Below, in pieces: positions 4,093 to 39,567 of a stretch of 47,363 bases of DNA. The stretch comes from an uncultured Gammaproteobacteria bacterium (GTDB lineage Bacteria; Patescibacteriota; Microgenomatia; Daviesbacterales; UBA10151), in assembly GCA_964387865.1 (NCBI GenBank), contig CAYLXC010000003.1, positions 15,833 to 63,195 of the forward strand, given 5' to 3'. The notes under the pieces were generated by a model, which saw nothing but the letters and a program-made list of their open reading frames with translations, was not told the DNA's origin and searched no databases. A program made the position numbers and the translations under genes. The number at the start of each line of letters is the position of its first letter. The first letter of the stretch is position 1.

Positions 4093-4100
4093 TTTTCCTC

Positions 4101-11633: not shown

Positions 11634-11636
11634 AAT

Positions 11637-16642: not shown

Positions 16643-18306
16643 TTTTATCCATAAGTTTGCTTTGGCCCCTTTTTTGGGCCCCTTTTTTTACCCATCATGA
16701 TGATGTATCAATAATTAGACTTTTTGAGATGGATAAATGTTTTAAAGACGGGCAGATTCCTTGCAGATGGGTACCTGATTTAGGCGGACTTTACGGCTAC
16801 CCCCTTTTTAATTATTATGCTCCCCTGCCCTACTATTTTGGGGAATTAATTTATTTTCTAACAAATAATTTAATAATTTCTGTAAAAGTAATGTTTGCTT
16901 TCTCATTTTTAGGATCCTATATTTTTATGTATCTATTGGGTACTAAATTTTGGGGTAAATTAGGCGGAAGTTTATGTGCCATTTTTTACAGCTTTGCACC
17001 ATACCATGCTTTAGATTTTTACGTAAGAGGGGCTATGGGAGAGATGTGGGCTATGATGTTTTTTCCTGCAATACTTTGGAGTCTTACAATACTTAAGGAG
17101 AAGGTGAATGTAAGCAGAATGTTTCTAAGTGCAATATTTGTGGCCCTTCTTTTTTTATCCCACAACCTTTCTGCTATGATTTTTTTCCCGATAATAATAT
17201 TTTGGATAATTATTTTGTTTCTAAAAGATAAAAAAATTAAATTCTTATGGTTTTCTTTCTTAGGATTATTACTTTCAATTTTACTTTCTTCATTTTATTT
17301 ACTTCCTTTAATTTCTGAGAAACATCTCGTTCATGTTGATACGCAAATTAGCGGATATTTCGGATACACGGAGCATTTTAAAGGGTTTGGAGAACTATTT
17401 CTGAGGAGAGATTGGGGGTATGGAGCATCTGTAAGGGAAGTGCCGGGAGGAGAGAGAGAAGAAATTTCTTTCCAAATTGGCTGGGTACATCTGTTGGGTT
17501 GGATGCTGGCAATTTTAAGTTTATGGTATTTCAGGAAAAAAAATCCGTGGGTGTCAAAATTAATTTTGTCAGTTTCCTTCGTGATTTTTTTGAGTGTTTT
17601 CATGATTCACCCAAGATCTCAAATAATCTGGGAAATCATAGAACCATTAAAATATTTGCAATTTCCTTGGAGATTTTTAATTATTGTAATTTTATTTATA
17701 TCATTTTTAAGCGGATCAGCTTTACTTGCTTTAAAAGAGTGGAAATACAAAATTTTTTTCCTGCTTATATCACTGGTTGTTATTCTAAATTTCGCTTACT
17801 TCAGGCCGGAAAAATTTATTTATGTTACTGATCAAAGCCTTCTGAGTGGTAAAGATTGGGAGCGTCAGATTAAAAGATCAATATTTGATTTTCTACCAAT
17901 TTTTGCAAAAGAGCCCCCCGCAGATTTGGCAGATGAACGTTATAAAATCTTAACAGGGGATACTAAGATTTCAGATTATGAAGAAGGTACTAACTGGATT
18001 AGTTTTAAAGCAAATGTCAAAACTCATACCATAGTCCGTTTATCCCAATATTATTTTCCGGATTGGAAAGTTTTTGTTGACAGTAAACCAATTGATATAG
18101 ATTATAAAAGTAGCGGTTTGGGTCTCATAACAATTATTTTAGGTAAAGGGGAGCATATTATTAATGCAAGACTTTACAATACTCCTGTAAGGAATATTGG
18201 AAACGGAGTTAGTTTGGTTAGTTTTGGTTTGGTGATAATTTTATATTTATTACAATTTAAAAAGGTTAGAAACTGGATTCTTTACTACAGAAAGAGGATT
18301 AATTAG
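16600..18306 (+). CDS. GT-C membrane protein, PF10131/YfhO-like, paralog 4
   Basis: HHDDV, RWVPDLGGLYGYPLFNYY, YVRGAMGE, SHN, QFPWRFL, YYFPDW. Confidence 0.8.
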   Translation: MATITKIWPFLLGLILSISLLWPLFWAPFFTHHDDVSIIRLFEMDKCFKDGQIPCRWVPDLGGLYGYPLFNYYAPLPYYFGELIYFLTNNLIISVKVMFAFSFLGSYIFMYLLGTKFWGKLGGSLCAIFYSFAPYHALDFYVRGAMGEMWAMMFFPAILWSLTILKEKVNVSRMFLSAIFVALLFLSHNLSAMIFFPIIIFWIIILFLKDKKIKFLWFSFLGLLLSILLSSFYLLPLISEKHLVHVDTQISGYFGYTEHFKGFGELFLRRDWGYGASVREVPGGEREEISFQIGWVHLLGWMLAILSLWYFRKKNPWVSKLILSVSFVIFLSVFMIHPRSQIIWEIIEPLKYLQFPWRFLIIVILFISFLSGSALLALKEWKYKIFFLLISLVVILNFAYFRPEKFIYVTDQSLLSGKDWERQIKRSIFDFLPIFAKEPPADLADERYKILTGDTKISDYEEGTNWISFKANVKTHTIVRLSQYYFPDWKVFVDSKPIDIDYKSSGLGLITIILGKGEHIINARLYNTPVRNIGNGVSLVSFGLVIILYLLQFKKVRNWILYYRKRIN

Positions 18307-18309: not shown

Positions 18310-19782
18310 GTGGCAGAAAGTTTTGAACAATTAGATTTGAGTGAAAAATTAAGTGTGGATATTGTGAAAAGAAGGGCAGTAGGCGGTGCCGCAATTTTGA
18401 CGTTAAGGAATGTATTTTTGCAAGCCGTTGCTTTTTTTGCAACAGCCCTTTTGACTTACTTTTTGCAGCCTTCAGAATTCGGAGTATTTTTTATTGTATC
18501 TGCAGTCGTGAATTTTTTGGCATATTTTTCCGATATAGGATTTGCTGCTGCCCTAATTCAAAAAAAGGACCATCTAAAAGATGAAGAATTAAAAACAGTT
18601 TTTAGTGCACAACAGTTACTTATTCTTTTCTTAATATTTACAGTTTTTATTTTAAGTCCAGTTTTGAAAAATTTCTACAAATTAGATATGGAAGCAATTT
18701 ATCTTCTTTGGGCACTCGCTATCTCACTACTTTTTTCATCTCTTAAAACCATACCCTCAGTATTAATGGAACGAAGACTGGAGTTTCAAAAATTAGTTAT
18801 ACCGCAAATTGTGGAGACTTTAGTATTTAATATTTCTGCTGTATTTCTTGCATGGAAGGGCTTTGGGGTAACAAGCTTTACAATTGCTGTCATATTAAGG
18901 GGGTTTAGCGGACTTATTGTTACATATATAGTTCAGCCTTGGGTTCCCTCTCTTGCATTTTCTTATAAAGCTTTTAAATCAGTATTAAAATATGGGATTC
19001 CTTATCAAGCAAATTCTCTCCTCGCAATGGTAAAAGATGATGGAATCACACTTCTTTTGGGAAGTACTCTAGGTGCTCAAGGAATTGGGCTTCTGGGATG
19101 GGCGCAAAAGTGGGCATATGCGCCTTTGCGTTTTTTCATGGATCAAGTTATAAAAGTCACCTTTCCTGCCTTTTCAAGATTACAAGATAATGATAAGGAG
19201 CTTTCAAATGCGGTTACAAAATCGATATTTTTTGTATGTGCTTTAGTTTTTCCTTCTCTCTTGGTGCTATTTTCCATTGCACCAATCCTGGTTGAAATAA
19301 TTCCAAAATATGACAAGTGGAGGCCGGCTCTTTTTGCGTTAACCATTTTATCCATAAATTCATCCCTGGCTGCAATTACAACTCCTTTAACCAACACATT
19401 AAACGCAATTGGGAAAATTATGATTACATTTAGACTTATGATCATGTGGACTATTTTGACTTGGGCTTTTGTTCCAGCACTTGCAATTCTTTTTGGAGTT
19501 AATGGGGCGGCTCTTGGATTTGGCCTTGTCGGACTAAGTTCTATTTTTGCTCTTATTATTATTTCAAAATATGTGAAAATAGATTATTTTCAAGCTGTCT
19601 TCAAACCTTTATTTGCAACAATTATTATGGGAGGATTTATTTTTATCATAAAAGGATTTTTTCCTTTATCAATTCTACAACTGATTATTATTATAATAAC
19701 TGCAATTCTTTCTTACATTTTTTCACTTTTGATTTTACAACCTGACATTTTAGTTCATCTAAAAGCATTAAGGAGAAGTTAA
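18310..19782 (+). CDS. wzx: Wzx/MOP-family oligosaccharide flippase
   Basis: About 12-14 hydrophobic segments; L.PSEFG, DIGFAAALIQK, ERRLEF, VTFPAFSRLQ. Confidence 0.9.
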   Translation: MAESFEQLDLSEKLSVDIVKRRAVGGAAILTLRNVFLQAVAFFATALLTYFLQPSEFGVFFIVSAVVNFLAYFSDIGFAAALIQKKDHLKDEELKTVFSAQQLLILFLIFTVFILSPVLKNFYKLDMEAIYLLWALAISLLFSSLKTIPSVLMERRLEFQKLVIPQIVETLVFNISAVFLAWKGFGVTSFTIAVILRGFSGLIVTYIVQPWVPSLAFSYKAFKSVLKYGIPYQANSLLAMVKDDGITLLLGSTLGAQGIGLLGWAQKWAYAPLRFFMDQVIKVTFPAFSRLQDNDKELSNAVTKSIFFVCALVFPSLLVLFSIAPILVEIIPKYDKWRPALFALTILSINSSLAAITTPLTNTLNAIGKIMITFRLMIMWTILTWAFVPALAILFGVNGAALGFGLVGLSSIFALIIISKYVKIDYFQAVFKPLFATIIMGGFIFIIKGFFPLSILQLIIIIITAILSYIFSLLILQPDILVHLKALRRS

Positions 19783-19783: not shown

Positions 19784-22700
19784 TTGATTAGAATTATTTT
19801 TATTTTTTTAACATTCTTAATATTTTCCTTAAACGCTCAAGAAATTTTTGCCCAGAATAATTCATTTGTTTCTATTGTTAATCCCATAAGAGGTAGCGAA
19901 TTTTGGGAGTTGAAAGATCAAAGTATTGATAATGCTGTTAAAGGTCAGTCTGAAATTTTAACAAAATATAATTTATCAGCAACCTGGCTTTTAAGAATTG
20001 ATGCTTTGGATAGTAAAGAGATTTTAGATTTAATAAATAAAAGAAGCCAGGATGAGAAAGGATTATTTTTGGAAATTACCCCTAGATTAACAAATTTAGC
20101 AAAGGTAAATTACCACAAATCAGAGAATTGGCATGATGCAGGAAGCGCATTTTTGAGCGGTTATGAGCGGTTTGAAAGAGAAAAAATTATTGATGCATCT
20201 TTTGAAAAATTTAGGGAGGTGTTTGGATACTACCCTTCCTCAGTTGGAGCATGGTGGATTGATGCATATTCCTTGGAATACATGCAACGAAAGTATGATA
20301 TCGTCGCCTCACTTATTGTTGCCGACCAATATACAACTGATAATTATCAGATTTGGGGCCAATTTTGGTCAACTCCATATTATCCGTCAAAAAGGAATGC
20401 ACTACACCCTGCACCAAATATGGATGATAAACTTTCTGTTGTTATCATGCAATGGGCCGCAAGGGATCCTGTAAATGCGTACGGAAATGGGGTAGGGGAG
20501 AGTACTTATAGTGTTCAGGCAAATGATTACTTGGATTATCACAATTTGGATATAAATTATTTTAAAAAACTTCTGGATATTTATTTGGGGCAAAAACTAA
20601 ATAAATTCGGTCATATTGTTATAGGTTTGGAAAATTCATATGACTGGAGTAAATATTCAAAGGAATATGAAAATCAAATAAAAATTATTTCCGAGCAAAG
20701 AAGAGCAGGTATCTTGTCAACAGCTACGATGTCCGAGTTTTCTTCATGGTACAGAGATAGATTTCCTGATCTTTCGCCTGAACATATTGTAGTTTCTGAA
20801 GATCCTTTAGGAACAGATAAAAAAGTAGTTTGGTTTATGAACTTAAATTATCGCGCAGGGTGGTTTTTCAACCAGGACGGATCAGTATTTAGAGATATTC
20901 ATCAATATACGGGGGGAGAGGAGATTTGTTTTCTGAGAAGATGTGATGAAGTCAACTTTGCAACGGGTGCAACAAGAGTTTTGGATGAGGTTAGTTTTGG
21001 CCATAAATGGGTAATAGATCAAGGGGAAATAAAAGAGTTTAAAGTTTCAAAAATAAATGAAAAATATATAATAAGCTATCAAAATGAGGCGGGGAATTTA
21101 AGGAAAATTGAATTCTTACAAAGAGATTTAGGCATTGATGGAAAAACTTATTCCATTGATTATACAATACTTGAGGCAACCAGAAAAATAATAGATGAAA
21201 AAGTGGGAGGGTTTATTAAAGAGAAGGGTTCTTTTGAATGGTCCATTACGGGAGTTTTTTTGAAAATTTTTAAGTTTTTGCTTTTTATTGTATTTCTAAT
21301 AATGTTGCCTGGCTACGTAATCTGTAGCAAAATTTCAAAAGATTTTGATTCAGTGTTTAGCGTATTATTCCTGTCAACCGTTATAGGAATGGTTACACTG
21401 ACTTTAGTATTTTATTTGTTAAGTATCTTTAATATTAAATTCTTAATTTTTTCATATAGTTTAATTTTCGCCTTAATATTTCTGAAACTGAAATTATTTA
21501 GGATAAGAAATTTTGGTATCAGAGGATTTAGCAAATTCGGGTTAATAATTTCCGCATTAATCTTATCCGGAACTATTTTTCAAACGGTTCCAACTTTTAA
21601 AAATGGATTACTTTATCCTTATGGGTTAGGTTTTTGGGGACCAAATACTCATGACGGGATTTGGCATATTTCACTAATTAATCAATTGAGTACATACCCT
21701 TTTGAAAACCCCATTTTTGCAGGGAATCCACTGAAAAACTATCATTTCTTTTATGATTTATTAATTGCAATTACTTCATTTTTGTCAAATATTCCGGTCA
21801 CAGACTTAGTGTTTCGATTTTACCCGGTTTTGTTTTCATTAATCTTGGGGATTGGTACGTATTATATTATTGTAAATTTATTCAAAGGGAAAATTAACCA
21901 AAAAGAGCTAAACTTAGCCTCTTTGATTGGGATTTATTTAGTATATTTTTCAGGGTCTTTTGGGTGGATAGTAGAATATTTAAAAAGCAAAAGTCTTGGT
22001 GGAGAATCTGCATTTTGGGCAAATCAATCAATTTCATTTAACTTGAATCCGCCGTTTGCAATATCATTAATAATTATTATTGCCATTTTCCAATTGCTTA
22101 ATGTCTTGAGATTCCAAAAAGGAATAATAATTCTCTTAGCTATATTGTGTGGCACATTGGTTTCATTTAAGGCATATGCAGCAGTTTTAATACTGGTTAC
22201 TTTATTTATAATATCAATAATTAAAAAGTCTCTTCCGCATTTTGTTGTCTTTATTGCAAGTAGTGTCCTTTCCGTAGCCTTATTTTTTTCAAATTTTTCA
22301 ATATCAACAAAATTATTCATATTCTCCCCCTTTTGGTTTATTCATTCTATGATTGATTCACCTGACAGGGTTGGTTGGGTAAGGCTATCTCTTGCAAGAA
22401 ATACAGGATTGGAAACAGGTAATTGGTTTAAATTTATAGTATCTGAGATAGTTGGTTTCTCAATATTTCTGGTTGGAAATATGGGCACAAGAGTATTTGC
22501 CTTGTTAAGCTTATTCAAAATTAAGTATATTTTTTCTCATACAACATTCTTAACACTGTTCATATTTTCGATTCTTGCATTATTTATTCCAATTCTATTT
22601 ATCCAGGCGGGGAACCCTTGGAATACAATACAGTTTTTGTATTATTTTTTATACGTCTCAGCAGTATTATCTGGAGTTGTACTTTCGAATCTCTTTTTGA

Positions 22701-23218
22701 GACTAAACAAAATAGTTGCATTGATATTTATAGGTATAATTTTAGTTCTGACTCCAATTAATTCCTGGGCAACTGCAAATGGATATTTAACTTATAATCC
22801 TCATGCGTATGTTTCAAAATTGGAACTTGAGGCTTTAAACTTTTTGGGATCAAAAGAAGATGGAATTGTTTTAACTTTTCCCTATGATAAAAATCTAAAG
22901 CAAAAGTTAGCAGAACCTTGGTCTCTTATGGTTTATGATAGTACTGCCTATGTTTCTGCGCTTTCTAAGAAGAAAGTCTTTGTTGAGGATGAGCCCCAAA
23001 ATCAAATTCTCTTAACAGATTATAAAAAAAGAATCGTAGCCTCATATGACTTCTTCATAAGATCTGGTCTGGATAAGAAGAATTTTTTAAGGGATAATAA
23101 CATAAAGTATATCTATGTTCCCAAAATATATAAAATTCAGTTGAACGAAACTGATTTACAAATTGAAAAGATATTTGAAAATGAAGAAGTTTTGATTTTT
23201 AAAGTAAAAGAAACTTAA
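19784..23218 (+). CDS. 1144-aa fusion: signal peptide, carbohydrate esterase/hydrolase-like extracellular domain, then 'HDxxWH' GT-C domain
   Basis: TTG start and signal-like N-terminus. Soluble region of about 460 aa with ATWLL, FREVFGYYPSSVGAWWID, DQYTTDNYQIWG and PYYPS (NodB/GH57-superfamily-like). From about 21240 it is multi-TM with THDGIWH, NYHFFYDL, GSFGW and NPP, shared with 23219 and 28685. Confidence 0.75.
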   Translation: MIRIIFIFLTFLIFSLNAQEIFAQNNSFVSIVNPIRGSEFWELKDQSIDNAVKGQSEILTKYNLSATWLLRIDALDSKEILDLINKRSQDEKGLFLEITPRLTNLAKVNYHKSENWHDAGSAFLSGYERFEREKIIDASFEKFREVFGYYPSSVGAWWIDAYSLEYMQRKYDIVASLIVADQYTTDNYQIWGQFWSTPYYPSKRNALHPAPNMDDKLSVVIMQWAARDPVNAYGNGVGESTYSVQANDYLDYHNLDINYFKKLLDIYLGQKLNKFGHIVIGLENSYDWSKYSKEYENQIKIISEQRRAGILSTATMSEFSSWYRDRFPDLSPEHIVVSEDPLGTDKKVVWFMNLNYRAGWFFNQDGSVFRDIHQYTGGEEICFLRRCDEVNFATGATRVLDEVSFGHKWVIDQGEIKEFKVSKINEKYIISYQNEAGNLRKIEFLQRDLGIDGKTYSIDYTILEATRKIIDEKVGGFIKEKGSFEWSITGVFLKIFKFLLFIVFLIMLPGYVICSKISKDFDSVFSVLFLSTVIGMVTLTLVFYLLSIFNIKFLIFSYSLIFALIFLKLKLFRIRNFGIRGFSKFGLIISALILSGTIFQTVPTFKNGLLYPYGLGFWGPNTHDGIWHISLINQLSTYPFENPIFAGNPLKNYHFFYDLLIAITSFLSNIPVTDLVFRFYPVLFSLILGIGTYYIIVNLFKGKINQKELNLASLIGIYLVYFSGSFGWIVEYLKSKSLGGESAFWANQSISFNLNPPFAISLIIIIAIFQLLNVLRFQKGIIILLAILCGTLVSFKAYAAVLILVTLFIISIIKKSLPHFVVFIASSVLSVALFFSNFSISTKLFIFSPFWFIHSMIDSPDRVGWVRLSLARNTGLETGNWFKFIVSEIVGFSIFLVGNMGTRVFALLSLFKIKYIFSHTTFLTLFIFSILALFIPILFIQAGNPWNTIQFLYYFLYVSAVLSGVVLSNLFLRLNKIVALIFIGIILVLTPINSWATANGYLTYNPHAYVSKLELEALNFLGSKEDGIVLTFPYDKNLKQKLAEPWSLMVYDSTAYVSALSKKKVFVEDEPQNQILLTDYKKRIVASYDFFIRSGLDKKNFLRDNNIKYIYVPKIYKIQLNETDLQIEKIFENEEVLIFKVKET

Positions 23219-25195
23219 GTGAATATTCTCTTGCAATTTATCCTTGGAGCATTATTTCTCTCTATATTTTTTATTTCAGTTACATTACCTGCACTTGCCT
23301 TAATAAGAAAATTATTCAGAATGGAGGATGAATTAGAAATATATACTATTGCTTCTGTTTTGGGAATTGTTATTTTTACGATTGTTGCATATATTTTGGC
23401 TGCTCTACATCTGCGTTACCTAATGTGGGTTTTTCCAATTACAGGAATTATACTGCTATTTAAATACAAAATAAATCTTAATAAGGTTATAGATTTGAAA
23501 CATAAGAAATTTTTTCTTTTGGTTATTATGCTGGGAATAATAGGACAAGTTGCCGTTAACGCCCCTTCAGGATTTCCTTATAAGGATGGTATTTATTTTT
23601 GGAGTTCACATGGGCATGATGGAATCTGGCATTTGGCTTTAATGGAACATATGAAAAACGGGGATTTTCCATTCCTAAATCCCGAACTCGCCGGACAAAA
23701 ACTGCAAAATTATCATTTTTTTGTTGATCTTTTAATGTCTGAATTTTCCAGGTTGTTTATGTTTTCAAATTTAGATATTTATTTTAGATTTATGCCGATT
23801 ATCTTCTCAGTCCTGCTGGGGTTTGGAAGCTTTATTTTCGTAAAACTTTGGAGCAAATCAGAAGTAGCTGGGATTTGGGCAATGTTTTTTACTTATTTTG
23901 CGGGAAGTTTTGGGTATTTAATATATGTCCCAACTCATAAAAGTTTGGGTGGTGAATCTATCTTTTGGGTTTCACAAACTCATTCAGTTTTGGGAAATCC
24001 ACCTCATGCTGCGGCCTTTATTATTACCACATTTTTCCTTTTTACTTATCTTAAATTTCTAAGAAATAGAAGCTTGAATTATTTTATAATTTCTGCTTTT
24101 TTAGGTGGGGCAGTAATAGGATTTAAAGTGTATGCTGGTGTCTTACTCCTTGGTGGATTACTTCTCGTTGGGATTTTGGAATTTCTAACAAGAAGAATTT
24201 ACAAAGGAATACTTTTGTTTATTACAACATTAGCTATTTCCGGAATAATCTATCTCCCAAACAGTGTGAATTCGCAAGATTTTCTTATTTGGCAACCATG
24301 GTGGTATATAAGGACTATGGTTGTGGCATCTGATAGGCTAAACTGGCTTGATTTGGAATTAAGAAGGCAAACATACATTGCAGAAAATAATTGGAAGCGT
24401 GTAATACAAGTTGAATTGATGGCATTCTTGATATTTCTTTTTGGTAATTTGGGAATGAGATTTTTGGGATTTTGGACAATTTTAAAAAAATTAAGACAAA
24501 ATATTTTTAAAGATTCCTTTAATCTATTCTTTTTGTCAATAACTTTAGCATCATTTTTCATTCCAATTTTTTTTCTGCAAAAAGGAGTTGCATGGAATTC
24601 CATACAATTTAATCAGTATTTTTTACTATTTTTTGGATTTTGGGCAGGGGCATCAATGGCAAATATTATGAATGTTTTTAAGAATGATTTTGTAAAGACT
24701 TGTATAGTAGTTCTTGTAATTATTTTATCTGTACCAACCCAACTGGGATTGCTTTGGCAATTTTATTCAAATCCTGCATTATCTAAAATTTCTTTAAAAG
24801 AAATTGAAGCTTTAAATTATTTAAAAAATCAGCCTGACGGGATAGTGCTTGTTGCACCGTTCAACAAATATGAAAAGGATAAGTATAAAAATCCACCTAT
24901 TCCCATATATGCCTGGTATGATACAGGCTATGTATCTGCTTTTTCATCTAAAAAAACTTTAATTTCAGATGAAGAGCAAATAAATATAATGGGTTATGAT
25001 GTTTCTAAACTTGTAAAGATGAGGAAAGAAGCTTTTGAAAGTTTAGATAAAAGGGTAGTAAATAATTTTTTAGCAAAATATGATGTAAGATATATTTACC
25101 TATCTTGGGATCAAAAATTTGCTACAAGCAGCGCCTATATTAATGCAGATATAATTTATGAAAATAGCGATGCAAAAATTTTAAAAGTTAAATGA
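23219..25195 (+). CDS. GT-C membrane glycosyltransferase, 'HDxxWH' family (STT3/AglB-like traits)
   Basis: SHGHDGIWH, NYHFFVDL, GSFGY, GNPP, FKVYAG; C-terminal soluble domain with WYDTGYVSA and YDVRYIY. Confidence 0.72.
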   Translation: MNILLQFILGALFLSIFFISVTLPALALIRKLFRMEDELEIYTIASVLGIVIFTIVAYILAALHLRYLMWVFPITGIILLFKYKINLNKVIDLKHKKFFLLVIMLGIIGQVAVNAPSGFPYKDGIYFWSSHGHDGIWHLALMEHMKNGDFPFLNPELAGQKLQNYHFFVDLLMSEFSRLFMFSNLDIYFRFMPIIFSVLLGFGSFIFVKLWSKSEVAGIWAMFFTYFAGSFGYLIYVPTHKSLGGESIFWVSQTHSVLGNPPHAAAFIITTFFLFTYLKFLRNRSLNYFIISAFLGGAVIGFKVYAGVLLLGGLLLVGILEFLTRRIYKGILLFITTLAISGIIYLPNSVNSQDFLIWQPWWYIRTMVVASDRLNWLDLELRRQTYIAENNWKRVIQVELMAFLIFLFGNLGMRFLGFWTILKKLRQNIFKDSFNLFFLSITLASFFIPIFFLQKGVAWNSIQFNQYFLLFFGFWAGASMANIMNVFKNDFVKTCIVVLVIILSVPTQLGLLWQFYSNPALSKISLKEIEALNYLKNQPDGIVLVAPFNKYEKDKYKNPPIPIYAWYDTGYVSAFSSKKTLISDEEQINIMGYDVSKLVKMRKEAFESLDKRVVNNFLAKYDVRYIYLSWDQKFATSSAYINADIIYENSDAKILKVK

Positions 25196-26805
25196 AAACA
25201 AAACTAATTTTGGGAGCAATAATATTTCTTGGCTTATTTCTAAGAAGTTTTGACATAGATAAGAATCCTCCTTCTTTATATGGAGATGAACTCACCATTA
25301 CTTTAGATGCTTATTCACTTTTAAAAACAGGAAAAGATCAGCTTGGAAATTCCTTTCCACTAACTTTTGAGATGGGTGCTGGAAGGCCTGCAGGGTATGT
25401 GTATGGATCAGTTCCATTTGTTGCCTTATTTGGACCAACTGCATTGGGGGTTAGAGGATTATCAATACTATCTGGTGTTTTAATTATTGTTTTGCTTTTT
25501 TATATAGGGAAAAATCTTTTCTCAGAAAGGCTAGGTTTGTCAGCAGCTTTTGTGGCAGCTGTTTCACCATGGGGAATAGCTTTAAGCAGGGGAGGGTTTG
25601 AGGCTCATTTTGCCCTTTTCCTTGCCGTTTTAGGCTTCTATTTTTTTCTTAATGCAAAAGAAAAACCCTTGTTCTATATTTATTCTGCCTTAAGTTTTGG
25701 ATTGACTCTACATACCTACCCCACATATAAAGTAGCTCTTCCTCTTTTTTTACTTTTGCTATTTTGGTTTCGGGGTAAAAATATTTTAGGAAACTCTAGA
25801 AAGCACCTCCTAACAGCTTTATTAATTTTACTTTTTTTAGGATTATTATCTTTTAGTCAAACTTTCATAGGGGGTTCAGAAACAAGATTTTCCGATATAA
25901 ATATAATTTCTCAGCAAGATTTGAAGGCTTCAATTGAACAGAAGATAAATTATGAAAGAAGTGTAACGATTTTGCCAGAGACCTTGTCCAAATTAATGCA
26001 TAACAAAGCCATTGAGTATTCAAAAGTTTTTATTGAAAATTATCTGCAAAATTTCTCCATGGATTTTCTTTTTATACATGGGGATAGAAATCCCCGTCAC
26101 AACATGGCAACAATGGGGGAGTTATACATAGTGGAATTAATTCTAGGTCTTGTCGGACTCCTTACTTCTTGGATAAAATATAAAAAGGCAATAATTTTTT
26201 TGATTTCTTGGTTAGTATTAGCACCAATTCCAACCGCCATTGTTGATTTGCCTCACGCTTTAAGAAGTGCCTTTATGCTTCCGCCATTGATTCTATTGTC
26301 ATCATTGGGTCTTTCCATAATTCTTAGCAGGAAAAATAGAGTTTTATTAATTTTGATTGCAATAATTTTTTCCGTTCAATTTATTTTCTTTTTACAAAAA
26401 CTTTTTTTTCTTTCTCCAAATCTTTATTCTAAATTTTGGTCGTATCCTGCAAAACAGGCAAGCGAAATAGCGAAGGAAAATATGAATCATTTTGACTTCA
26501 TAATATTGTCGGATAAAATTGATAATATTGAATTTGCATATCCTGTTTATGAAAAAATTAAGCCATCAGAAATTATGGATCAAAATATAGATAGAATTAG
26601 TTTATTGGAATATAAATTTAAAAAGTTTGGCAACGTTTACATAGGAAATTTGCCGGGTGATGAAGCAAAAAAATTATTATCCGATTTAAATGGATCAGTG
26701 TTTTATGTCGGTTTACCGGATGAATCAATTAATTTTACAGATTATCAAATTTTGCAAAGTTTGGATAAAATGCCCTCTCTACTGGTGGCAAATAAAGCAA
26801 GATGA
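25192..26805 (+). CDS. ArnT/PMT-like GT-C glycosyltransferase
   Basis: PPSLYGDE, AYSLLKTGKDQLG..FP, SRGGFE, FIHGD.NPRH, PHALRS. Confidence 0.85.
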   Translation: MKTKLILGAIIFLGLFLRSFDIDKNPPSLYGDELTITLDAYSLLKTGKDQLGNSFPLTFEMGAGRPAGYVYGSVPFVALFGPTALGVRGLSILSGVLIIVLLFYIGKNLFSERLGLSAAFVAAVSPWGIALSRGGFEAHFALFLAVLGFYFFLNAKEKPLFYIYSALSFGLTLHTYPTYKVALPLFLLLLFWFRGKNILGNSRKHLLTALLILLFLGLLSFSQTFIGGSETRFSDINIISQQDLKASIEQKINYERSVTILPETLSKLMHNKAIEYSKVFIENYLQNFSMDFLFIHGDRNPRHNMATMGELYIVELILGLVGLLTSWIKYKKAIIFLISWLVLAPIPTAIVDLPHALRSAFMLPPLILLSSLGLSIILSRKNRVLLILIAIIFSVQFIFFLQKLFFLSPNLYSKFWSYPAKQASEIAKENMNHFDFIILSDKIDNIEFAYPVYEKIKPSEIMDQNIDRISLLEYKFKKFGNVYIGNLPGDEAKKLLSDLNGSVFYVGLPDESINFTDYQILQSLDKMPSLLVANKAR

Positions 26806-28034
26806 TTAAAGTATTAGATACATTGGGATTAAAAAGATTATTTTTGTTAGCGATTTTAATAAGGCTTTTCATTATGCCTTTTTATTTTCATCCTGATATA
26901 AAAACATATCATTTTCAAGCACAGTTTTTAAATAGAGGAGTTTTTAATATTTATGACTATCTTGAAAAAAATAAAGAAAACCTTCCAATTAAAGAGGAAT
27001 TTGTTTATTTTCCTCTGACATATTTTTTCTTAGGCAGTTATCAACTAATAGCTAATGCATTTTTGGGAACGGGTTTTTCTGAATGGCTATCTGATGCTTC
27101 CCAAACAGCAGTTAATCGGATTGGTGTTTTTCGTTATCTTTTTATTCTGAAACTTCCTTATCTAATTTTAGATCTTCTAATCCCTTTTCTTCTTATCGGT
27201 TTTTTTAAAGAAAAAAAAGAACAGAGAAAATTTTTTATACTTTGGTTATTCAATCCGGTATCAATTGTAATAATTTATATCTTTTCAAATGTAGATATTA
27301 TTCCGGTGATTTTATCTCTGATGAGCATCCTTCTTTTTAGAGATCGCCAGATTTTCAAAAGTGCCTTGCTTCTTGGAATATCTGCAGGATTTAAACCTTT
27401 TACACTACTTCTTCTTCCAATTTTTTTACTTTTTAATAAAAGATTAAAAGAGGCAGTTAAATACGTATTAACTACCACTCTAACTTTGGGATTAATAATA
27501 ATACCATTTTGGTCAAATGCTTTTTTCCATTCAGCCCTCCTATCTGGTCTCACTACAAGGATTGCATATCCCGGGATCTCGGTAGGATTTGGTGAATCTT
27601 TGATGATAGGAGTTGTTGTACTCTTTGGTTTTTATTTCTGGACTTTGATGAGGAAAACAAAGGGGTTGAATGATATCTGGCTTTACATGTTCTCCTTACT
27701 TTTGCTTCTTTTTTCAACTATTCATTTTCATGTTCAATGGTTATTTTGGGTTATGCCCTTTCTAGTTATTATTTCTATTTTTAGGAAAGATCTTACTAAA
27801 CTCATTCTTCTTTGGTTAAATATGGCATTCTTAATACCAATACTTTATAACGATCAGGCCATGAATGTTTCTTTACTTTCCGCAATCAGTTTGCTTTATA
27901 CGACTTTACCTACCATATTTGTAATAGTACAGAAAATTTATGATCCTTATTTGTTACAAAGTATTTTGCATAGCATAATTTTTGCATTAAGTCTAATCTT
28001 AGTCTCAAAAATTTTTAGAATTGAGGAATCATGA
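26802..28034 (+). CDS. GT-C membrane protein, 'FHPDI' family (GT87/PIG-M/ALG6-like)
   Basis: FHPDIK, YFPLTY, LKLPY..LDL, WLFNP, DIIP, GFK, HVQW; paralog of 33506. Confidence 0.72.
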   Translation: MIKVLDTLGLKRLFLLAILIRLFIMPFYFHPDIKTYHFQAQFLNRGVFNIYDYLEKNKENLPIKEEFVYFPLTYFFLGSYQLIANAFLGTGFSEWLSDASQTAVNRIGVFRYLFILKLPYLILDLLIPFLLIGFFKEKKEQRKFFILWLFNPVSIVIIYIFSNVDIIPVILSLMSILLFRDRQIFKSALLLGISAGFKPFTLLLLPIFLLFNKRLKEAVKYVLTTTLTLGLIIIPFWSNAFFHSALLSGLTTRIAYPGISVGFGESLMIGVVVLFGFYFWTLMRKTKGLNDIWLYMFSLLLLLFSTIHFHVQWLFWVMPFLVIISIFRKDLTKLILLWLNMAFLIPILYNDQAMNVSLLSAISLLYTTLPTIFVIVQKIYDPYLLQSILHSIIFALSLILVSKIFRIEES

Positions 28035-28684
28035 AAGTTTATTTTTTGACAACTGGTTTTATTTTATTACTTTTAATAATAATTCCTTCGGTGTTAGGCT
28101 TTGGCATAAGATATTTGCCGGGTGGGATTCAACCATCTTTAGGTAACACAAAAAGAATTTATGGGGATGTTAGATTATATCAATCATTTGTTTCACCACA
28201 AGATAATTTGGCAGGAATTGGAACAAGTATAAAAAATCCAAATTTTGCAAATAAAGAGGATCTAAGAATTGATATTCATGATGAAAAAGATCAGTTAATC
28301 AGGACCATTTCAATAAATGGCAGAAATACAGCGGATGGGAATTTCATGAGATTAACATTCCCGCCTATAGAAAATTCAAAGAATGAAAAATATACATTCT
28401 CACTTTCATCTAGGGCCTCAACTTATGAGAATGCCTTGGAAGTTTTTCTAACAGAGGATAATCCTTCATGGAATTTACAGTTAAGAGAGAATGGGGAAGC
28501 CGTGGGTGAAAATATATCTTTTATTACTTTGCATAAAGTAACATCACCATTCGAAGTTTTGACAATTATATATACTGGGTGGATTACAAAACTTTTAAAA
28601 GATATATATTTTTTTGTCTTTTATGTAAGTCTTTTGATCGTTATAGTTTTAGCGTTAATAAGTCCGTTAAGAAAGAATAAATAA
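28031..28684 (+). CDS. Hypothetical membrane protein: TM, soluble beta-rich domain, TM
   Basis: Hydrophobic N- and C-termini around a soluble domain of about 150 aa; ATGA overlap with the upstream gene. Confidence 0.8.
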   Translation: MKVYFLTTGFILLLLIIIPSVLGFGIRYLPGGIQPSLGNTKRIYGDVRLYQSFVSPQDNLAGIGTSIKNPNFANKEDLRIDIHDEKDQLIRTISINGRNTADGNFMRLTFPPIENSKNEKYTFSLSSRASTYENALEVFLTEDNPSWNLQLRENGEAVGENISFITLHKVTSPFEVLTIIYTGWITKLLKDIYFFVFYVSLLIVIVLALISPLRKNK

Positions 28685-30685
28685 TTATTGTTGAACTTTC
28701 CATATCTCTACTAAAGAATTTGAGAATACTTTTTTAAAGTAGGTTTTTGTAAGATCTACTTTTGGTGAAAGAGGGATAGGAAGATAGAGATAGTCTATGT
28801 TACTATCTTTAAGCTGGTTCGAAAAGATAACTGGATTATCCTCTAAAAAAATACTTTTTGTAAATTCTAATCTTTTTTTAAAATCATAACCCATGATATC
28901 AAGCTGTTCTGTATCTGAAAGATAGACTCTTTTTCCTGAAAGAGCTGAAACATATGACGTATCAAACCAATCCCACATATGAGGAATAGGGTCATTAAAA
29001 TTTAAATCTTTATTATATGGTGAGGTGAGGATAATGTTATCATTGGATACATTCTTTTTTAAAAACTCTAAAGCTAAGAGTTCCTGAGAGTCAATTTTTG
29101 TAATGGGAGTTCTATTATAAAATGAATATATAAGAGCAACTTGTGTGGGGACTGAAAATATAATTATTAAAAGAGAAATTAAAACAGACGAGACATTTGA
29201 CCTAATCTTTAAGAGAATTTTTGCCACACTAAGCCCAGCCAAAATACCAGTAATAAGAAGAAAATATTGCATAAATTGAATAGTATTTGCTGCTATACCT
29301 TTTTGTAAAAAAAGAAGTGGCAGTAAAAATGATATTGTCATTATTAACACTAAAATCATACTAAAATAATTTTTAAAAAATGTTTTTAAGAGAGAAAAAA
29401 ATGAGAAAATACCCAAAAATCTCATACCTAAATTTCCAAAAAAGAAAATTAGAAAACCTGTGAGCTCAATCTGTAAGACTCTTATCCAATTCCCTTGATA
29501 AATATAAGTTTGTCTTCTTAATTCCCAATCAACTAAATTAAGTCTATCCGGTGCAACAATTAAAGTCCTAATGAACCACCAGGGTTCGAAAATAAGGAAT
29601 GCAGCAGTATTTGAAGCATTGGGAAAGTATAAAAAGGCAGATAGTAAACTGCTTACGAAAAATACTGCAAAAATATGGATCTTTCTTTCCCTGATGAGTT
29701 GCCACAGTCCTATCAATAGAAGACTTAATAATAGAATCAGTGCGCCGTATATTTTAAATCCTGTAAGTACTCCAGCAATAAGTGCACATATTAAAAGAAG
29801 AAATTTGTTTCGGTATTTTATAAAAATTCTAAATAAATAGAGAAATGTTAGAACAATAATTAATGCTATAATCTGCGGAGGATTTCCTGTAGAGCTTTGT
29901 ATTTGGGACGCCCAAAAGAGACTTTCACCGCCAACAGTGCCATTCTGCATGTAAGTTACAATATAGCCAAAGCTCCCTGCAAAGTATGTGAATATGGTTG
30001 CCCAAAGACCAGCAGTGTAAGAGCCACCTAATTTTTTACCTAGTAAATACGCCAAGCTGCCAAGTAAAATTGAATAAATAAGAGGAAAAAAACGAAAATA
30101 AAGATCAAGCGGAGAAAAATTAAAGTAGCGGTTAAATTCTGCAGGAGCAATATCTGAGAAAAAATGATAATTTACCAATCTTTCGCCTGCAAAGGAGGGA
30201 TTTTGCATAGGTAATCCTTTTTGATACTCATTCATTAAAGAGATATGCCATAAAGAATCATGTCCGTGAGAAGAGTAAAAAATTAAGTTGCCATCTTGGT
30301 AAATTCCACTTGGAGAAATTATCAAAAGTTGACCAGCAACTCCTAATATAAAAATTAAAATGAGTAACAACAAGCTCTTTTGAGGAAGTAGGGTAATTTG
30401 ATTCCGTAAACTGACAGTCTTTTTTAGTGCAGAGATGTTTATTAAGGAAATTATGGGGATAAGTAATATATCAATATTTAATATAGCCAAAACGTATGAA
30501 AGAAGTGTAAAAAAAGCAAATCCCACAACTGTCCCCAAAATTATTTTTTCCCAAAATGAAAACTTAGGATAACTTTTTTCCAGAAGAAAAATTCCCGGAA
30601 TTGTAAACAAAAGAATTGAAAGGAATGAGAAAATTGTCAGCTGGATCATAAATGAAATAGAATCCATTTTACTTAATGTAGTCAA
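28685..30685 (-). CDS. GT-C membrane glycosyltransferase, 'HDxxWH' family (STT3/AglB-like traits)
   Basis: SHGHDSLWH, NYHFFSDI, GSFGY, GNPP, ELRRQTYI, WFDTSYVSA; close paralog of 23219. True start may be ATG 30667 or 30649. Confidence 0.72.
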   Translation of the reverse strand: MTTLSKMDSISFMIQLTIFSFLSILLFTIPGIFLLEKSYPKFSFWEKIILGTVVGFAFFTLLSYVLAILNIDILLIPIISLINISALKKTVSLRNQITLLPQKSLLLLILIFILGVAGQLLIISPSGIYQDGNLIFYSSHGHDSLWHISLMNEYQKGLPMQNPSFAGERLVNYHFFSDIAPAEFNRYFNFSPLDLYFRFFPLIYSILLGSLAYLLGKKLGGSYTAGLWATIFTYFAGSFGYIVTYMQNGTVGGESLFWASQIQSSTGNPPQIIALIIVLTFLYLFRIFIKYRNKFLLLICALIAGVLTGFKIYGALILLLSLLLIGLWQLIRERKIHIFAVFFVSSLLSAFLYFPNASNTAAFLIFEPWWFIRTLIVAPDRLNLVDWELRRQTYIYQGNWIRVLQIELTGFLIFFFGNLGMRFLGIFSFFSLLKTFFKNYFSMILVLIMTISFLLPLLFLQKGIAANTIQFMQYFLLITGILAGLSVAKILLKIRSNVSSVLISLLIIIFSVPTQVALIYSFYNRTPITKIDSQELLALEFLKKNVSNDNIILTSPYNKDLNFNDPIPHMWDWFDTSYVSALSGKRVYLSDTEQLDIMGYDFKKRLEFTKSIFLEDNPVIFSNQLKDSNIDYLYLPIPLSPKVDLTKTYFKKVFSNSLVEIWKVQQ

Positions 30686-30714: not shown

Positions 30715-31614
30715 ATGTTAAGCAAAATATCTGTAGTAATCAATACTTTAAATAATGAAGGTAATATCAAAAGAGCTTTAGAATCTGTTAAATGGGCTGA
30801 TGAAATTTTAGTTTGTGATATGCACTCAGGTGATAAAACTTCTGGAATTGCAAAAGAGATGGGTGCTAAAGTGATTGAGGGTAAAAGGGTGGAATATGTT
30901 GAACTTGCAAGAAATTTTTCAATTTCAAAAGCATCAAATGATTGGATTTTAGTTCTAGATCCTGACGAGGAAATCACGGAAAGTTTAAAAGAAAGACTAC
31001 TTCAAATTTCATCCAAAATGAAGGGGATAGATTATGTTAGAATTCCAAGAAAAAATATTATTTTTGGTAAATGGATGCAAGCTTCAGGTTGGTGGCCTGA
31101 TTTAAATATAAGATTTTTTAAAAAGGGCAAAGTCAAATGGAGTAATAAAATCCACAGACCTCCTGAAGTGATGGGTGAAGGAATAGATCTTGAAGCAGAT
31201 GAGAGATGGGCAATAATTCACAACAATTATGGAAGTATCTCAGATTTTATTATTAGAATGAATAGGTATACAAAAGTTGAGGCCGACGAGTTGATAAAAG
31301 ATGGATGTAAATTTAACTGGAAAGATTTAATAGAAAAACCACTCAGTGAGTTTTTGTCAAGGTTTTTTGCAAATAAAGGATATTTGGATGGATTGCACGG
31401 TTTAGCACTAAGTTTATTGCAAGCTTTTTCTTTCTTGATTGTTTATTTAAGAATTTGGGAGAGAGAAAATTTCAAGCAGTCAGAAATAAACTTTTCGGAT
31501 ATTGAAGATGAAAAGAAAAGAATGAATCAAGATGTAGATTATTGGATAAATCAGACAAAAAAATCCAAAAGTCTTCTTAAAAGTTTTTTTCAAAAAATTA
31601 AAACAAAAAAATAA
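30715..31614 (+). CDS. GT2, beta-1,4-glucosyltransferase-like (WaaE/LgtF type)
   Basis: ALESVKWADEILVCD.HS.DKT, ARN, WILVLDPDE, WWPD..IRFF, GYLDG.HG. Confidence 0.88.
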   Translation: MLSKISVVINTLNNEGNIKRALESVKWADEILVCDMHSGDKTSGIAKEMGAKVIEGKRVEYVELARNFSISKASNDWILVLDPDEEITESLKERLLQISSKMKGIDYVRIPRKNIIFGKWMQASGWWPDLNIRFFKKGKVKWSNKIHRPPEVMGEGIDLEADERWAIIHNNYGSISDFIIRMNRYTKVEADELIKDGCKFNWKDLIEKPLSEFLSRFFANKGYLDGLHGLALSLLQAFSFLIVYLRIWERENFKQSEINFSDIEDEKKRMNQDVDYWINQTKKSKSLLKSFFQKIKTKK

Positions 31615-31617
31615 TCT

Positions 31618-32421
31618 ATGTTATCTGTAATAATAATAGCTAAAAATGAAGAAGATAGAATTAAGGCATGTCTAGAATCAATAAAATGGGCAGATGAGAT
31701 AATTATTGCCGATAATGGATCTTCAGATAAGACTCTAAAAATTGCCAAAATTTATACTGATAATATTATTAAATTTGAAAGCCAAGATTTTTCTACTATA
31801 AGAAATGAGGCACTCAAAAAATCATTAGGTGATTGGGTCCTTTATGTAGACTCAGATGAAAGAGTTTTGCTTCCATTAAGGGAAGAGATAGAGAAGCTTA
31901 TGGAAACTGATGAAATTGGAGCATATGCCATTTCTCGCAAAAATATTATATTTGGTCATGAAGTAAATTATGGTCCTTATAAACATGATTGGGTGGTTAG
32001 GCTTTTTAAAAGATCAGATTTTGATAGTTGGAGCGGTAAAGTTCACGAGTCAGTACAATTTAGGGGAAAACTAGGATATACAAAAAATTCTCTTTTACAT
32101 TTAACACATAGGGGAGTTGATCAAATTGTTTTAAAAAGTTTGGAATGGAGTAAAATTGATTCAAAATTAAGACTTAATGCTAATCATCCAAAAATGTCTG
32201 GCTGGAGGTTTTTAAGAATTTTTATAACTGAGATTTTTAATCAGGGGATTAAAAGAGGTGGATTTTTTAATGGGACAATAGGGATAATGGATTCAATATT
32301 GCAAGCTTTCAGTATGTATATAACTTATGTCAGAGTTTGGGAAATGCAGCAGGATAAACCACTAAAAGAAATTTATGATGAGATAGACAAAAGATTAATT
32401 GAAAATAATTTTAAGGATTAA
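31618..32421 (+). CDS. GT2, beta-1,4-glucosyltransferase-like
   Basis: AKNEE, CLESIKWADEIII.DNGS.DKT, WVLYVDSDER, RLF, VHE. Confidence 0.88.
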   Translation: MLSVIIIAKNEEDRIKACLESIKWADEIIIADNGSSDKTLKIAKIYTDNIIKFESQDFSTIRNEALKKSLGDWVLYVDSDERVLLPLREEIEKLMETDEIGAYAISRKNIIFGHEVNYGPYKHDWVVRLFKRSDFDSWSGKVHESVQFRGKLGYTKNSLLHLTHRGVDQIVLKSLEWSKIDSKLRLNANHPKMSGWRFLRIFITEIFNQGIKRGGFFNGTIGIMDSILQAFSMYITYVRVWEMQQDKPLKEIYDEIDKRLIENNFKD

Positions 32422-32428
32422 ACAAGAA

Positions 32429-33505
32429 GTGAAAGCTGCTATTTATTCTCCATATTTGGATACTTTTGGCGGAGGAGAGAGGTACATGTTGACTATTGCT
32501 GAGCTACTTTCAAAAAAAAGTTTTAAGGTTGATGTTATATTGAATGAACAATTAAATAGTTTGGATGGAGAGTATTTAAAGAGTGAATTATCAAAAAGAT
32601 TCAATTTAAACCTTATAAATGTAAATTTTATAAAAGGACCTTTGGGTAAGGGATCGAATTTTCTGGAAAGATTTTTTTTTCTCAAAAAATATGACGTGCT
32701 TTTTTATTTAACTGATGGAAGCATTTTTTATCCCTCATCAAAGCAAAATATTTTACATATTCAGTCTCCCCTACTGGGTGAGAGTGCAAAAAGTTTATGG
32801 CGAAAGATTAAACTTAATGGATGGGATCTGGTTATCTATAACTCCCGCTTTACTAAGCAAAACTCCCAAAAAAATTGGCCAATCTCCTCTAAAATAATTT
32901 ATCCACCAGTTGATGTTATTAAAATAAAACCATTACAAAAGAAGAAATATATATTATCAGTAGGAAGATTTTTTGGATACTTAAAGGATAAAAAACATGA
33001 AATTTTAATAAAAACATTTAAAGAAATCCTAAAGGAAGATATTTTGAATGGGTGGAGTCTACATTTGGTGGGGTCAGCAGGTGACGGGGATAAAAAATAC
33101 CTGGATGAATTGAAAAATTTGGCAAAAGGATTTCCGATAAAATTTTATCCTAATTTAGATTATGATGATCTTAAAACTTTGTATGGAGAATCTAGTATTT
33201 ATTGGCATGCATCAGGATACGGGGAGGATGATCCAGCCAAGATGGAGCATTTTGGGATTTCAACTTGTGAAGCCATGACAGGAGGATGTGTGCCAGTTGT
33301 AATAGGAAAAGGGGGCCAAGTTGAAATAGTAGATAATAAAATTGGAGGATTTTTGTGGGATAATTTAAGCCAGTTGAAAAGTTATACCCTAAAACTTATT
33401 AAAGATGAGAATTTAAGAAAGAAAATGGGAAAAGAGGCAGTTAGGAAATCTAAGGATTTTAGCAAAGAAAATTTCAGGAAAAAAATAATGAATATCATTA
33501 CTTAA
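32429..33505 (+). CDS. GT4 (GT-B) glycosyltransferase, ALG11-like
   Basis: SPYLDTFGGGERY, NSRFT, IYPPVD, ILSVGRF, EHFGISTCEAM (EX7E). GTG 32429 preferred as start. Confidence 0.88.
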   Translation: MKAAIYSPYLDTFGGGERYMLTIAELLSKKSFKVDVILNEQLNSLDGEYLKSELSKRFNLNLINVNFIKGPLGKGSNFLERFFFLKKYDVLFYLTDGSIFYPSSKQNILHIQSPLLGESAKSLWRKIKLNGWDLVIYNSRFTKQNSQKNWPISSKIIYPPVDVIKIKPLQKKKYILSVGRFFGYLKDKKHEILIKTFKEILKEDILNGWSLHLVGSAGDGDKKYLDELKNLAKGFPIKFYPNLDYDDLKTLYGESSIYWHASGYGEDDPAKMEHFGISTCEAMTGGCVPVVIGKGGQVEIVDNKIGGFLWDNLSQLKSYTLKLIKDENLRKKMGKEAVRKSKDFSKENFRKKIMNIIT

Positions 33506-37882: not shown

Positions 37883-37885
37883 TAT

Positions 37886-39541: not shown

Positions 39542-39552
39542 AAATTAAACCA

Positions 39553-39561: not shown

Positions 39562-39567
39562 TAAGCT

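Follow-up and report, generated by a model that had tools for sequence, protein, structure and literature searches.

Three membrane proteins related to oligosaccharyltransferases but without most of their sequon-reading motifs in a glycan-assembly island of the Patescibacteriota

Contig CAYLXC010000003.1 (assembly GCA_964387865.1) carries, at positions 15,833 to 63,195, a stretch of 47,363 nt, referred to here as the window, in which we describe three paralogous genes, A, B and C. The window is part of a 954-kb, 94%-complete genome of the Patescibacteriota and is as a whole a glycan-assembly island. The products of A, B and C belong to a large family of the Candidate Phyla Radiation (CPR) that is covered by no curated model. 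They are related to the catalytic subunits of oligosaccharyltransferases (OSTs), namely STT3, AglB and PglB, and are built like them, yet they are not members of the OST family as it is defined. All of our findings are computational.

According to the introduction of PMC8342417, OST catalytic subunits have 13 transmembrane helices, two DXD motifs (in external loops EL1 and EL2), a TIXE/SVSE motif in EL5, and the WWDYG, DGGK/DNXT and DK/MI motifs. In that account, TIXE/SVSE serves in recognition of the sequon backbone and forms the sequon and Ser/Thr site together with DK/MI and WWDYG. Features of A, B and C are listed below, by window position, with the size of each open reading frame (ORF) in amino acids (aa); residue numbers follow B here and throughout, and fractions with a denominator of 74 refer to our family alignment of 74 sequences.

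19784-23218, plus strand: paralog A, whole ORF (1144 aa)
19784..21250, plus strand: N-terminal part of A, a signal anchor and a ~470-aa secreted domain related to 3lm3/DUF3863 (profile, Pfam and hydropathy)
21240..23218, plus strand: membrane core and C-terminal domain of A, with VYDST at the WWDYG position (family profile E 1.2e-202)
23219..25195, plus strand: paralog B (658 aa), with three extra transmembrane helices, an 11-helix core of the GT-C glycosyltransferase (GT) fold and a C-terminal globular domain
23615..23632, plus strand: HDGIWH of B, external loop 1, residues 133-138, with D134 as the putative catalytic Asp (74/74)
23948..23959, plus strand: GGES of B, external loop 2, residues 244-247, with E246 as a candidate second acidic residue or metal ligand (alignment)
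24749..25192, plus strand: C-terminal extracytoplasmic alpha/beta domain of B, residues 511-658, ~148 aa, a homolog of the OST core domain
24914..24928, plus strand: WYDTG of B, residues 566-570, at the OST WWDYG position (hhalign, within one residue of register)
24968..24970, plus strand: D584 of B, aligned with the Asp of OST DGGK/DNXT (alignment)
28685..30685, minus strand: paralog C (666 aa), motif WFDTS, convergent to the A-B operon (family profile E 2.5e-231)

The original prediction for this locus, made from the DNA alone, had recognized three 'HDxxWH' paralogs and quoted short motif strings for them, and every one of these strings was found in the three ORFs. B carries HDGIWH at residues 133-138, ALNYL, WYDTGYVSAFSSKKTLISD from residue 566 (window position 24914) and VRYIYL; the corresponding strings are HDSLWH, ALEFL, WFDTSYVSALSGKRVYLSD and IDYLYL in C, and HDGIWH, ALNFL, VYDSTAYVSALSKKKVFVED and IKYIYV in A. 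B is 42% identical to C and 31% identical to the C-terminal 660 residues of A, and across ~650 aligned columns ~130 are invariant. That the paralogs share the quoted motifs at 31-42% identity is not due to chance, because of these identities, the invariant columns and the E-values of A, B and C against the family profile (1e-202 to 4e-238). The start given earlier for the region, 21240, is the beginning of the membrane part of A. The placement of HDxxWH in a first loop was right for the GT-C core, where it lies in the first external loop, but in B and C three extra N-terminal transmembrane helices precede it, and in A it is preceded by the signal anchor, the ~470-aa secreted domain and then three extra helices. 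The count of 11 core helices, with three more at the N-terminus of B, was taken from the predicted model and from family-averaged hydropathy.

No Pfam or NCBIfam match was obtained for A, B or C at E<=0.1. Their close homologs, mostly from Candidatus Daviesbacteria, are annotated solely as 'hypothetical protein', and a profile search of the genome returned A, B and C as its sole three family copies. An exhaustive search recovered 1256 cluster representatives (50% identity) at E<=1e-3 and 493 at E<=1e-30. The family occurs in three forms: the core alone (~540-600 aa), the core with three additional N-terminal helices, as in B and C (~650-680 aa), and a long form with a secreted N-terminal domain, as in A (~1020-1160 aa). 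Ten columns of the family alignment are invariant (G118, D134, Y165, H166, F249, K303, G409, N410, Q454 and Q463). The family was not found described in the literature searched, from which most subscription journals were absent.

Kinship with OSTs was assessed by profile-profile alignment using hhalign. When 401 Patescibacteria genomes were searched for genuine STT3, just partial matches of <=38 bits were obtained, and since these were too marginal to serve as comparators, archaeal AglB was used. AglB loci were fetched with a degenerate WWDYGYW DNA pattern and 36 full-length ORFs were aligned; the seven WWDYGYW columns of this set are invariant by construction. As a control, the set was compared with the STT3 Pfam models, of which PF02516 matched 31/36 and PF21436 33/36 sequences. 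The same models gave no match at E<=1 in the 74 family members; in the genome that holds the window, PF02516 had no match above cut-off, and none in A, B or C, and PF21436 had none at E<=10.

Profile against profile, the family aligned with AglB at a probability of 97.5 and an E-value of 5.3e-12, in 441 colinear columns that start in EL1 and extend through the whole core domain. The membrane part alone reached E 1.3e-5 and the C-terminal domain alone E 9.1e-5, the latter landing exactly on the WWDYG region. Reversed-template controls gave E-values of 0.03-0.24, and in 60 column shuffles per profile none reached the observed scores of 38.7 and 67.5, the top shuffle scoring 20. The family also aligned with the PMT_2 set of the window (score 64, E 4.9e-7), against which AglB itself scored 131; the membrane part alone scored 54 against AglB versus 64 against the window PMT_2 set. 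Small alignments of window proteins were needed for this comparison, single PMT_2 or PTPS_related window proteins giving no significant match to the family. By sequence, the membrane part is not specifically OST-like, and the OST-specific signal comes from the C-terminal domain. When the 74-sequence profile was searched against all PDB sequences, the best match was a triose-phosphate isomerase (E 1.8), and with a single sequence as query it was 7p01_A (E 0.054), so that neither search gave a significant match.

The C-terminal domain is common in CPR bacteria: a 6-sequence profile found it in 79/401 sampled Patescibacteria genomes, at the C-terminus of ORFs of 490-860 aa. A word-based search with the domain alone returned close relatives only. 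The remote CPR proteins that bear the domain match no Pfam family. A profile of 20 of these remote C-terminal domains, built without members of the family alignment, matched AglB at a probability of 95.9 and E 5.4e-9, and matched neither PMT_2 (E 0.011) nor PTPS_related (E 0.23). At full length, 17 remote proteins aligned with AglB (probability 98.6, E 5.3e-16) and with the 74-sequence family (probability 99.9, E 2.4e-36).

Two further groups of sequences were noted during these searches. Loci L156-L185 represent another, more numerous group of CPR membrane proteins (510-580 aa) with an OST-type C-terminal domain and no Pfam family; they are without the 20-residue insertion described below and keep Arg at the position of the AglB transmembrane helix 12 (TM12) Arg. 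The WWDYGYW scan also recovered, beside the expected archaea, long ORFs of bacterial metagenome-assembled genomes with an intact motif at the usual position, in eight Dehalococcoidia/Chloroflexi loci (L034, L036, L043, L064, L077, L081, L090 and L108) and three Planctomycetota loci (L056, L086 and L105). Of these, L034, L036 and L090 are among the 36-sequence AglB set, for which the Pfam counts apply to the set as a whole only.

A model of B was built with AlphaFold on the 74-sequence alignment, with a predicted local distance difference test (pLDDT) score of 96.1 and a predicted TM-score (pTM) of 0.95. When it was compared with the PDB using Foldseek, ranks 1-19 were all OST catalytic subunits (E 2e-10 to 4.8e-8), including human STT3A and STT3B, yeast STT3, Archaeoglobus fulgidus AglB and Campylobacter lari PglB; next came DPY19 (2e-7), AftA (1.1e-4) and ArnT (1.5e-4). 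The Foldseek TM-scores were modest, at 0.44-0.52. A Foldseek-independent search, VIA, was run over 48,161 chains and placed STT3B (6s7t_A; Z 21.3, root mean square deviation (rmsd) 5.3 A, 456 aligned residues) and AglB (3waj_A; Z 21.0, rmsd 5.1 A, 441 aligned residues, model residues 96-658) first. These were followed by ALG12 (9s6t_A; Z 17.7), Pmt4 and the Pmt1-Pmt2 complex (9e61_A and 6p2r_B; Z 17.4), PglB (5ogl_A; Z 17.3), DPY19 (7zlg_A; Z 16.6), ArnT (5f15_A; Z 16.6), AftA (8if8_B; Z 15.3), AftB (9dlh_C; Z 15.2) and AftD (6wbx; Z 12.2). In total, 22 solved chains match B at Z>=8, nearly all of them GT-C enzymes or fold relatives.

The C-terminal domain was also modelled alone (residues 510-658; pLDDT 86.4). 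Its top VIA match was the globular domain of A. fulgidus AglB-S2 (3vu0_A; Z 10.8, rmsd 2.1 A, 108 aligned residues), ahead of STT3B (6s7t_A; Z 9.8), AglB (3waj_A; Z 9.7), DPY19 (7zlg_A; Z 9.3), AftD (6wbx_A; Z 9.1), the C. jejuni PglB C-terminal domain (3aag_B; Z 8.6), PglB (5ogl_A; Z 8.2) and AftA (8if8_B; Z 7.5), while chains without a GT-C link stayed at Z <=5.2. Foldseek concurred, with 3vu0 first at E 1.1e-3. The predicted assignment of this domain to the OST core domain is thus borne out, and AftA, named beforehand as the best match that would speak against it, ranks lower for both the whole protein and the domain (Z 15.3 and 7.5 versus 21.3 and 10.8 for OSTs). Judging from the model, this fold is not confined to domains that bind peptides, as it also appears in the glycan-acting AftD and AftA.

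Individual residues were paired through hhalign alignments at 12-15% identity together with the predicted model. In EL1, D134 (74/74) pairs with the AglB EL1 Asp, D66 (36/36), and in the WYP region of this loop Y165 pairs with an AglB Tyr and P193 with P139. In the region of the second DXD, E246 (68/74) pairs with AglB E188 (26/36); AglB R179 and G183, which stand beside that motif, have no conserved partner in the family. The statement that no clear DxD-type second metal motif is present overlooks E246 of GGES as a candidate acidic residue. R414 pairs with AglB K/R346, the basic residue after the EL5-like loop. D584 (66/74) pairs with AglB D565 (33/36), the Asp alone being kept of DGGK/DNXT. 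In TM12, the family has Q463 (74/74) where AglB has Arg (30/36) and where remote CPR homologs retain Arg.

The elements that read the sequon fared differently. The AglB SVAEH columns V365 and E367 lie opposite a gap in the family alignment, and [ST][IV]xE was found within the EL5-like loop (B residues 349-393) in 1/74 sequences. The AglB residues G626, D627, K630 and I637, which belong to DK/MI, have no aligned partner, and the family domain stops ~30 residues past the aligned YIY strand. At WYDTG, the hhalign register is one residue off the by-eye pairing of W-Y-D-T-G on W-W-D-Y-G, and the placement rests on hhalign and on domain-level superposition. Across the 74 sequences this position reads Y (42) or W (17), then a variable residue, then S (27), D (17) or T (13), followed by T and A, so that W and D stand at the two key positions in 17/74 sequences each. 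Paralog A has VYDST there, and remote homologs keep Gly alone. Among close orthologues of B, WYDTG is exact in 89/106, with W in 106/106 and D in 99/106 (14/120 sequences had no anchor match and were left uncounted). In a FastTree phylogeny, midpoint-rooted and with support not assessed, W-x-D-T-x is confined to the clade of B and C, which keeps W-[YF]-D-T-[GS], and A lies in a clade with Y-[DE]-[ST]-T-[AS]. The insertion that had been seen before W-x-D is real and amounts to ~20 residues relative to remote CPR homologs.

The family thus shares with STT3/AglB/PglB (CAZy GT66; PF02516 and PF21436) the top structural matches for both the whole protein and the domain, a colinear profile alignment, the EL1 Asp, the EL2 Glu, the basic residue after the EL5-like loop, the DGGK/DNXT Asp and an external C-terminal alpha/beta core domain. 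It differs in having 11 predicted core helices, plus three at the N-terminus, as opposed to the 13 of OSTs, in matching no Pfam model, in lacking TIXE/SVSE and DK/MI, in its degenerate WWDYG, in Gln for the TM12 Arg, in the ~20 residues inserted before the WWDYG position, in a minimal globular domain of ~148 aa and in family-specific invariants (H166, F249, W250, K303, G409, N410, Q454 and Q463). The proposal of divergent STT3/AglB OSTs is accordingly upheld as to kinship, by profile-profile alignment and by structure, and fails as to membership, given the missing Pfam match, the loss of TIXE/SVSE and DK/MI and the degenerate WWDYG. We regard the family as a distant, stripped-down relative of STT3/AglB/PglB with the GT-C(A) fold.

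The surroundings of A, B and C in the window include the following genes.

18310..19782, plus strand: Wzx-type (MOP, Polysacc_synt_3) flippase (Pfam PF13440, E 3e-54)
25192..26805, plus strand: PMT_2-type GT-C glycosyltransferase (Pfam PF13231, E 1.3e-11)
26802..28034, plus strand: 410-aa polytopic protein (no Pfam match)
28031..28684, plus strand: 217-aa protein with a transmembrane helix at either end and a beta-rich middle, adjoining C (no Pfam match)
30715..33505, plus strand: two GT2 and one GT4, cytoplasmic glycosyltransferases (Pfam)
401-4092: dTDP-rhamnose and GDP-sugar genes
44649-45959: second Wzx-type flippase

The first flippase gene ends 1 nt before the start of A. Related genomes were sampled from the same class and the same family (16 genomes, of which 7 have full-length family members; 20-kb regions were compared), and in the window as in 7/7 relatives (8/8 in all) a family member has a Polysacc_synt_3 gene of the same orientation as its immediate upstream neighbor. 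GT2, GT2 and GT4 genes also lie near family members in the 7 relatives. In 3/7 (G003, G059 and G032) a second, convergent family copy follows genes of ~400 aa and ~220 aa, as it does in the window. The counterpart of the 410-aa protein in G032 (399 aa, L155) matches GT87 at E 1.2e-5 and also PIG-M, and no Pfam match was obtained for those of 405-407 aa in G003 and G059. ORFs of 198-225 aa without a Pfam match stand beside the convergent copy in all three of these genomes, and the 217-aa protein of the window may be an accessory or acceptor-binding subunit. The GT2 and GT4 products could assemble a lipid-linked glycan.

Besides A, B and C, the window holds ~15 GT-C-type genes (PMT_2, PTPS_related, GT87 and PIG-V types), so that ~18 such genes are packed into 47 kb, in a genome of 0.95 Mb. 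Polytopic proteins of 508-568 aa are encoded by two tandem runs, each of five genes. The run at 10107-18306 consists of one PMT_2 (10107-11633), three PTPS_related and one gene without a Pfam match (14954-16642), and the run at 34602-42692 is all PMT_2. A 718-aa fusion (6468-8624, plus strand) joins a GT2 domain (residues 7-168) to a PMT/PMT_2 GT-C membrane domain (residues 245-461) and could be a one-protein version of a synthase and transferase pair. At 4089-5285 (plus strand), a GT2 is fused to a GtrA/DPMS transmembrane domain, the arrangement of a polyprenyl-phosphate-sugar synthase. Two minus-strand ORFs interrupt the otherwise plus-strand island, at 5282-6445 (387 aa) and 9362-9793 (143 aa), neither with a Pfam match.

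No Wzy_C protein was found above cut-off in the window. Elsewhere the genome encodes five Wzy_C proteins, two MraY/WecA-type enzymes, one PglC-type primer enzyme and one LCP protein; the Wzy_C proteins are on contigs C2, C4, C8, C18 and C34, the C2 copy ~5 kb from the sole PglC-type primer enzyme. On account of these genes, we rejected the view that the family stands in for Wzy/WaaL-type enzymes that the genome lacks. Since Wzy_C, LCP and primer enzymes are encoded elsewhere, nothing forces the role of a ligase or polymerase on the family.

A, B and C are very probably STT3-related GT-C transferases of lipid-linked sugars. Our favored reading, to which we give a probability of roughly 0.45, is that they are Wzx-coupled, STT3-derived transferases of a lipid-linked glycan and are not canonical N-X-S/T OSTs, the acceptor being something other than protein, an envelope glycopolymer or another non-sequon target. 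Since the sequon-reading elements are missing or degenerate, the acceptor is taken to be of this kind. Cytoplasmic GT2 and GT4 enzymes would make a polyprenyl-phosphate-linked saccharide, and the Wzx-type flippase encoded upstream would bring it to the outer face of the membrane, as the conserved gene linkage suggests. The membrane core of the enzyme would then take the lipid-linked donor, with D134, E246, R414 and D584 at positions that serve catalysis or donor binding in OSTs and presumably having like roles. The glycan would finally be passed to an acceptor that the external loops and the C-terminal domain keep in place, and this acceptor step is the weakest of the proposal.

Several observations weigh against this reading. 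The nearest solved structures, STT3 and AglB, modify proteins, and the matches that follow include Pmt, PglB and DPY19. The conservation of WYDTG in 89/106 orthologues of B, and of W-x-D-T-x across the clade of B and C, fits a retained binding pocket. The residue roles are drawn from alignments at 12-15% identity and from a predicted model. Glycosyltransferases, a flippase and an OST-like enzyme together resemble the pgl and agl clusters of protein glycosylation. Finally, GacL and WpsJ, which we take as analogues, are reported as PMT_2-type and not STT3-like (PMC8035078, Table 2), and the analogy with them is functional only.

That analogy concerns systems in which a Wzx-type flippase and a GT-C enzyme act on a rhamnan wall polysaccharide, namely GacK/GacL and WpsG with WpsJ and WpsH. 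As presented in PMC10821137 and PMC8035078, a flipped sugar or oligosaccharide linked to undecaprenyl phosphate (Und-P) is proposed to be moved onto the wall glycan, which the GT-C enzyme would decorate or anchor, and the models are partly bioinformatic. The likeness lies in function and gene order, a Wzx-type flippase being paired with a GT-C in a locus with rhamnose genes. The GacIJKL and WpsABGJ systems make their Und-P primer with a GT-A enzyme and a small membrane activator; the window has GT2 genes. AftA, AftB and AftD (8if8, 9dlh and 6wbx) are likewise GT-C enzymes that act on glycans outside the membrane, and AftD and AftA have the domain fold, but their whole-protein Z-scores of 15.3, 15.2 and 12.2 compare with 21 for OSTs, and Foldseek E-values with 1e-4 versus 2e-10. 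The C-mannosyltransferase DPY19 (7zlg), for which the comparison is structural only, has the GT-C(A) fold and a luminal domain of the same fold, and falls below OSTs for the whole protein (Z 16.6) and for the domain (Z 9.3). DUF2298 or 'YYY' proteins (PF10060) were found as neighbors among Atlas predicted structures (TM-score 0.77-0.80 over ~594 residues); PF10060 has no match at E<=10 in the genome of the window, nor in five Dehalococcoidia genomes.

The alternative that survives best, though we hold it to be rather unlikely, is that these are true protein OSTs that act on envelope proteins at a motif other than N-X-S/T, with the W-x-D-T-G of B and C forming part of the acceptor pocket. In structure, OSTs come first with a margin of more than 3 Z units, and their Foldseek E-values are 3-5 orders better than those of AftA and ArnT. 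The domain matches the core domains of AglB, STT3 and PglB (Z 8.2-10.8), WYDTG is kept in orthologues of B and W-x-D-T-x in the clade of B and C, the family retains both the catalytic Asp and that of the DGGK type, and the flippase with its GT2 and GT4 surroundings fits. These points are countered by the absence of TIXE/SVSE and DK/MI, by W and D that are not kept family-wide and are missing from A and from remote homologs, by the lack of an STT3 Pfam match and by the fact that no candidate acceptor protein was identified. The original prediction had suggested altered sequon specificity, and we abandon this as the favored function, given that the sequon elements are missing, that WWDYG is not conserved across the family, that the TM12 Arg is replaced by Gln and that the fold occurs in AftD and AftA as well. 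A bolder version is less likely still: a CPR lineage derived from or sister to STT3, in which the clade of B and C continues to bind polypeptide through its W-x-D-T-G segment and OST-type core domain, would represent a new bacterial protein glycosylation with a rule other than N-X-S/T, carried out on a minimal OST chassis without TIXE or DK.

It is improbable that the proteins are polymerases, in a Wzy-like role with a GT-C fold, which would join Wzx-flipped repeat units, the paralogs serving different steps or units. The strict flippase linkage and the lack of a Wzy_C protein above cut-off in the window speak for it, and a GT-C polymerase, WpsH, has been proposed for the lactococcal pellicle, although in that source (PMC10821137) this precedent is itself a model and not a demonstrated activity. 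Five Wzy_C proteins are encoded elsewhere in the genome, and the sequence holds nothing that separates a polymerase from a transferase.

That A, B and C are ordinary single-sugar GT-C enzymes using polyprenyl-monophosphate sugars (ArnT, PMT_2 or AftA/AftB type), with an OST likeness that reflects the shared GT-C(A) scaffold, would suit a membrane part no closer to AglB (54) than to window PMT_2 (64), the Z-scores of 15-17 for AftA, AftB, ArnT and Pmt and the polyprenyl-phosphate-sugar synthase-like GT2 genes of the window, but is very doubtful in view of whole-protein scores more than 3 Z units higher for OSTs, a C-terminal domain that matches AglB by sequence and not PMT_2 or PTPS_related, and a regular partner flippase of the Wzx and not the GtrA type.

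Paralog A adds a further element. A profile of 28 long forms matched the PDB entry 3lm3_A, deposited as an 'uncharacterized protein', at E 1.5e-6 over profile positions 151-384, and Pfam DUF3863 matches 8/28 long-form members at E<=1, with a best E-value of 0.0011. An Atlas lead for the N-terminal part of A has a score of 0.89. Hydropathy places this N-terminal domain outside the cell, a topology that is predicted from sequence, and our guess would be a role in sugar processing.

The novelty lies in a GT-C lineage that resembles STT3 yet lacks the motifs for reading the sequon. Its core domain is minimal, it bears additional N-terminal helices and has a fixed Wzx partner, and in A a 3lm3-like domain is fused to it. 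These near-uncultured CPR bacteria devote a large share of a 0.95-Mb genome to extracytoplasmic glycan assembly. The family keeps the catalytic and donor-side residues of OSTs and has lost the sequon readers, and so constitutes a natural experiment on transfer versus acceptor choice. Whether it proves to glycosylate proteins by a new route or to have put the OST chassis to use in the assembly of wall glycan, it would be of interest, not least to glycoengineering.

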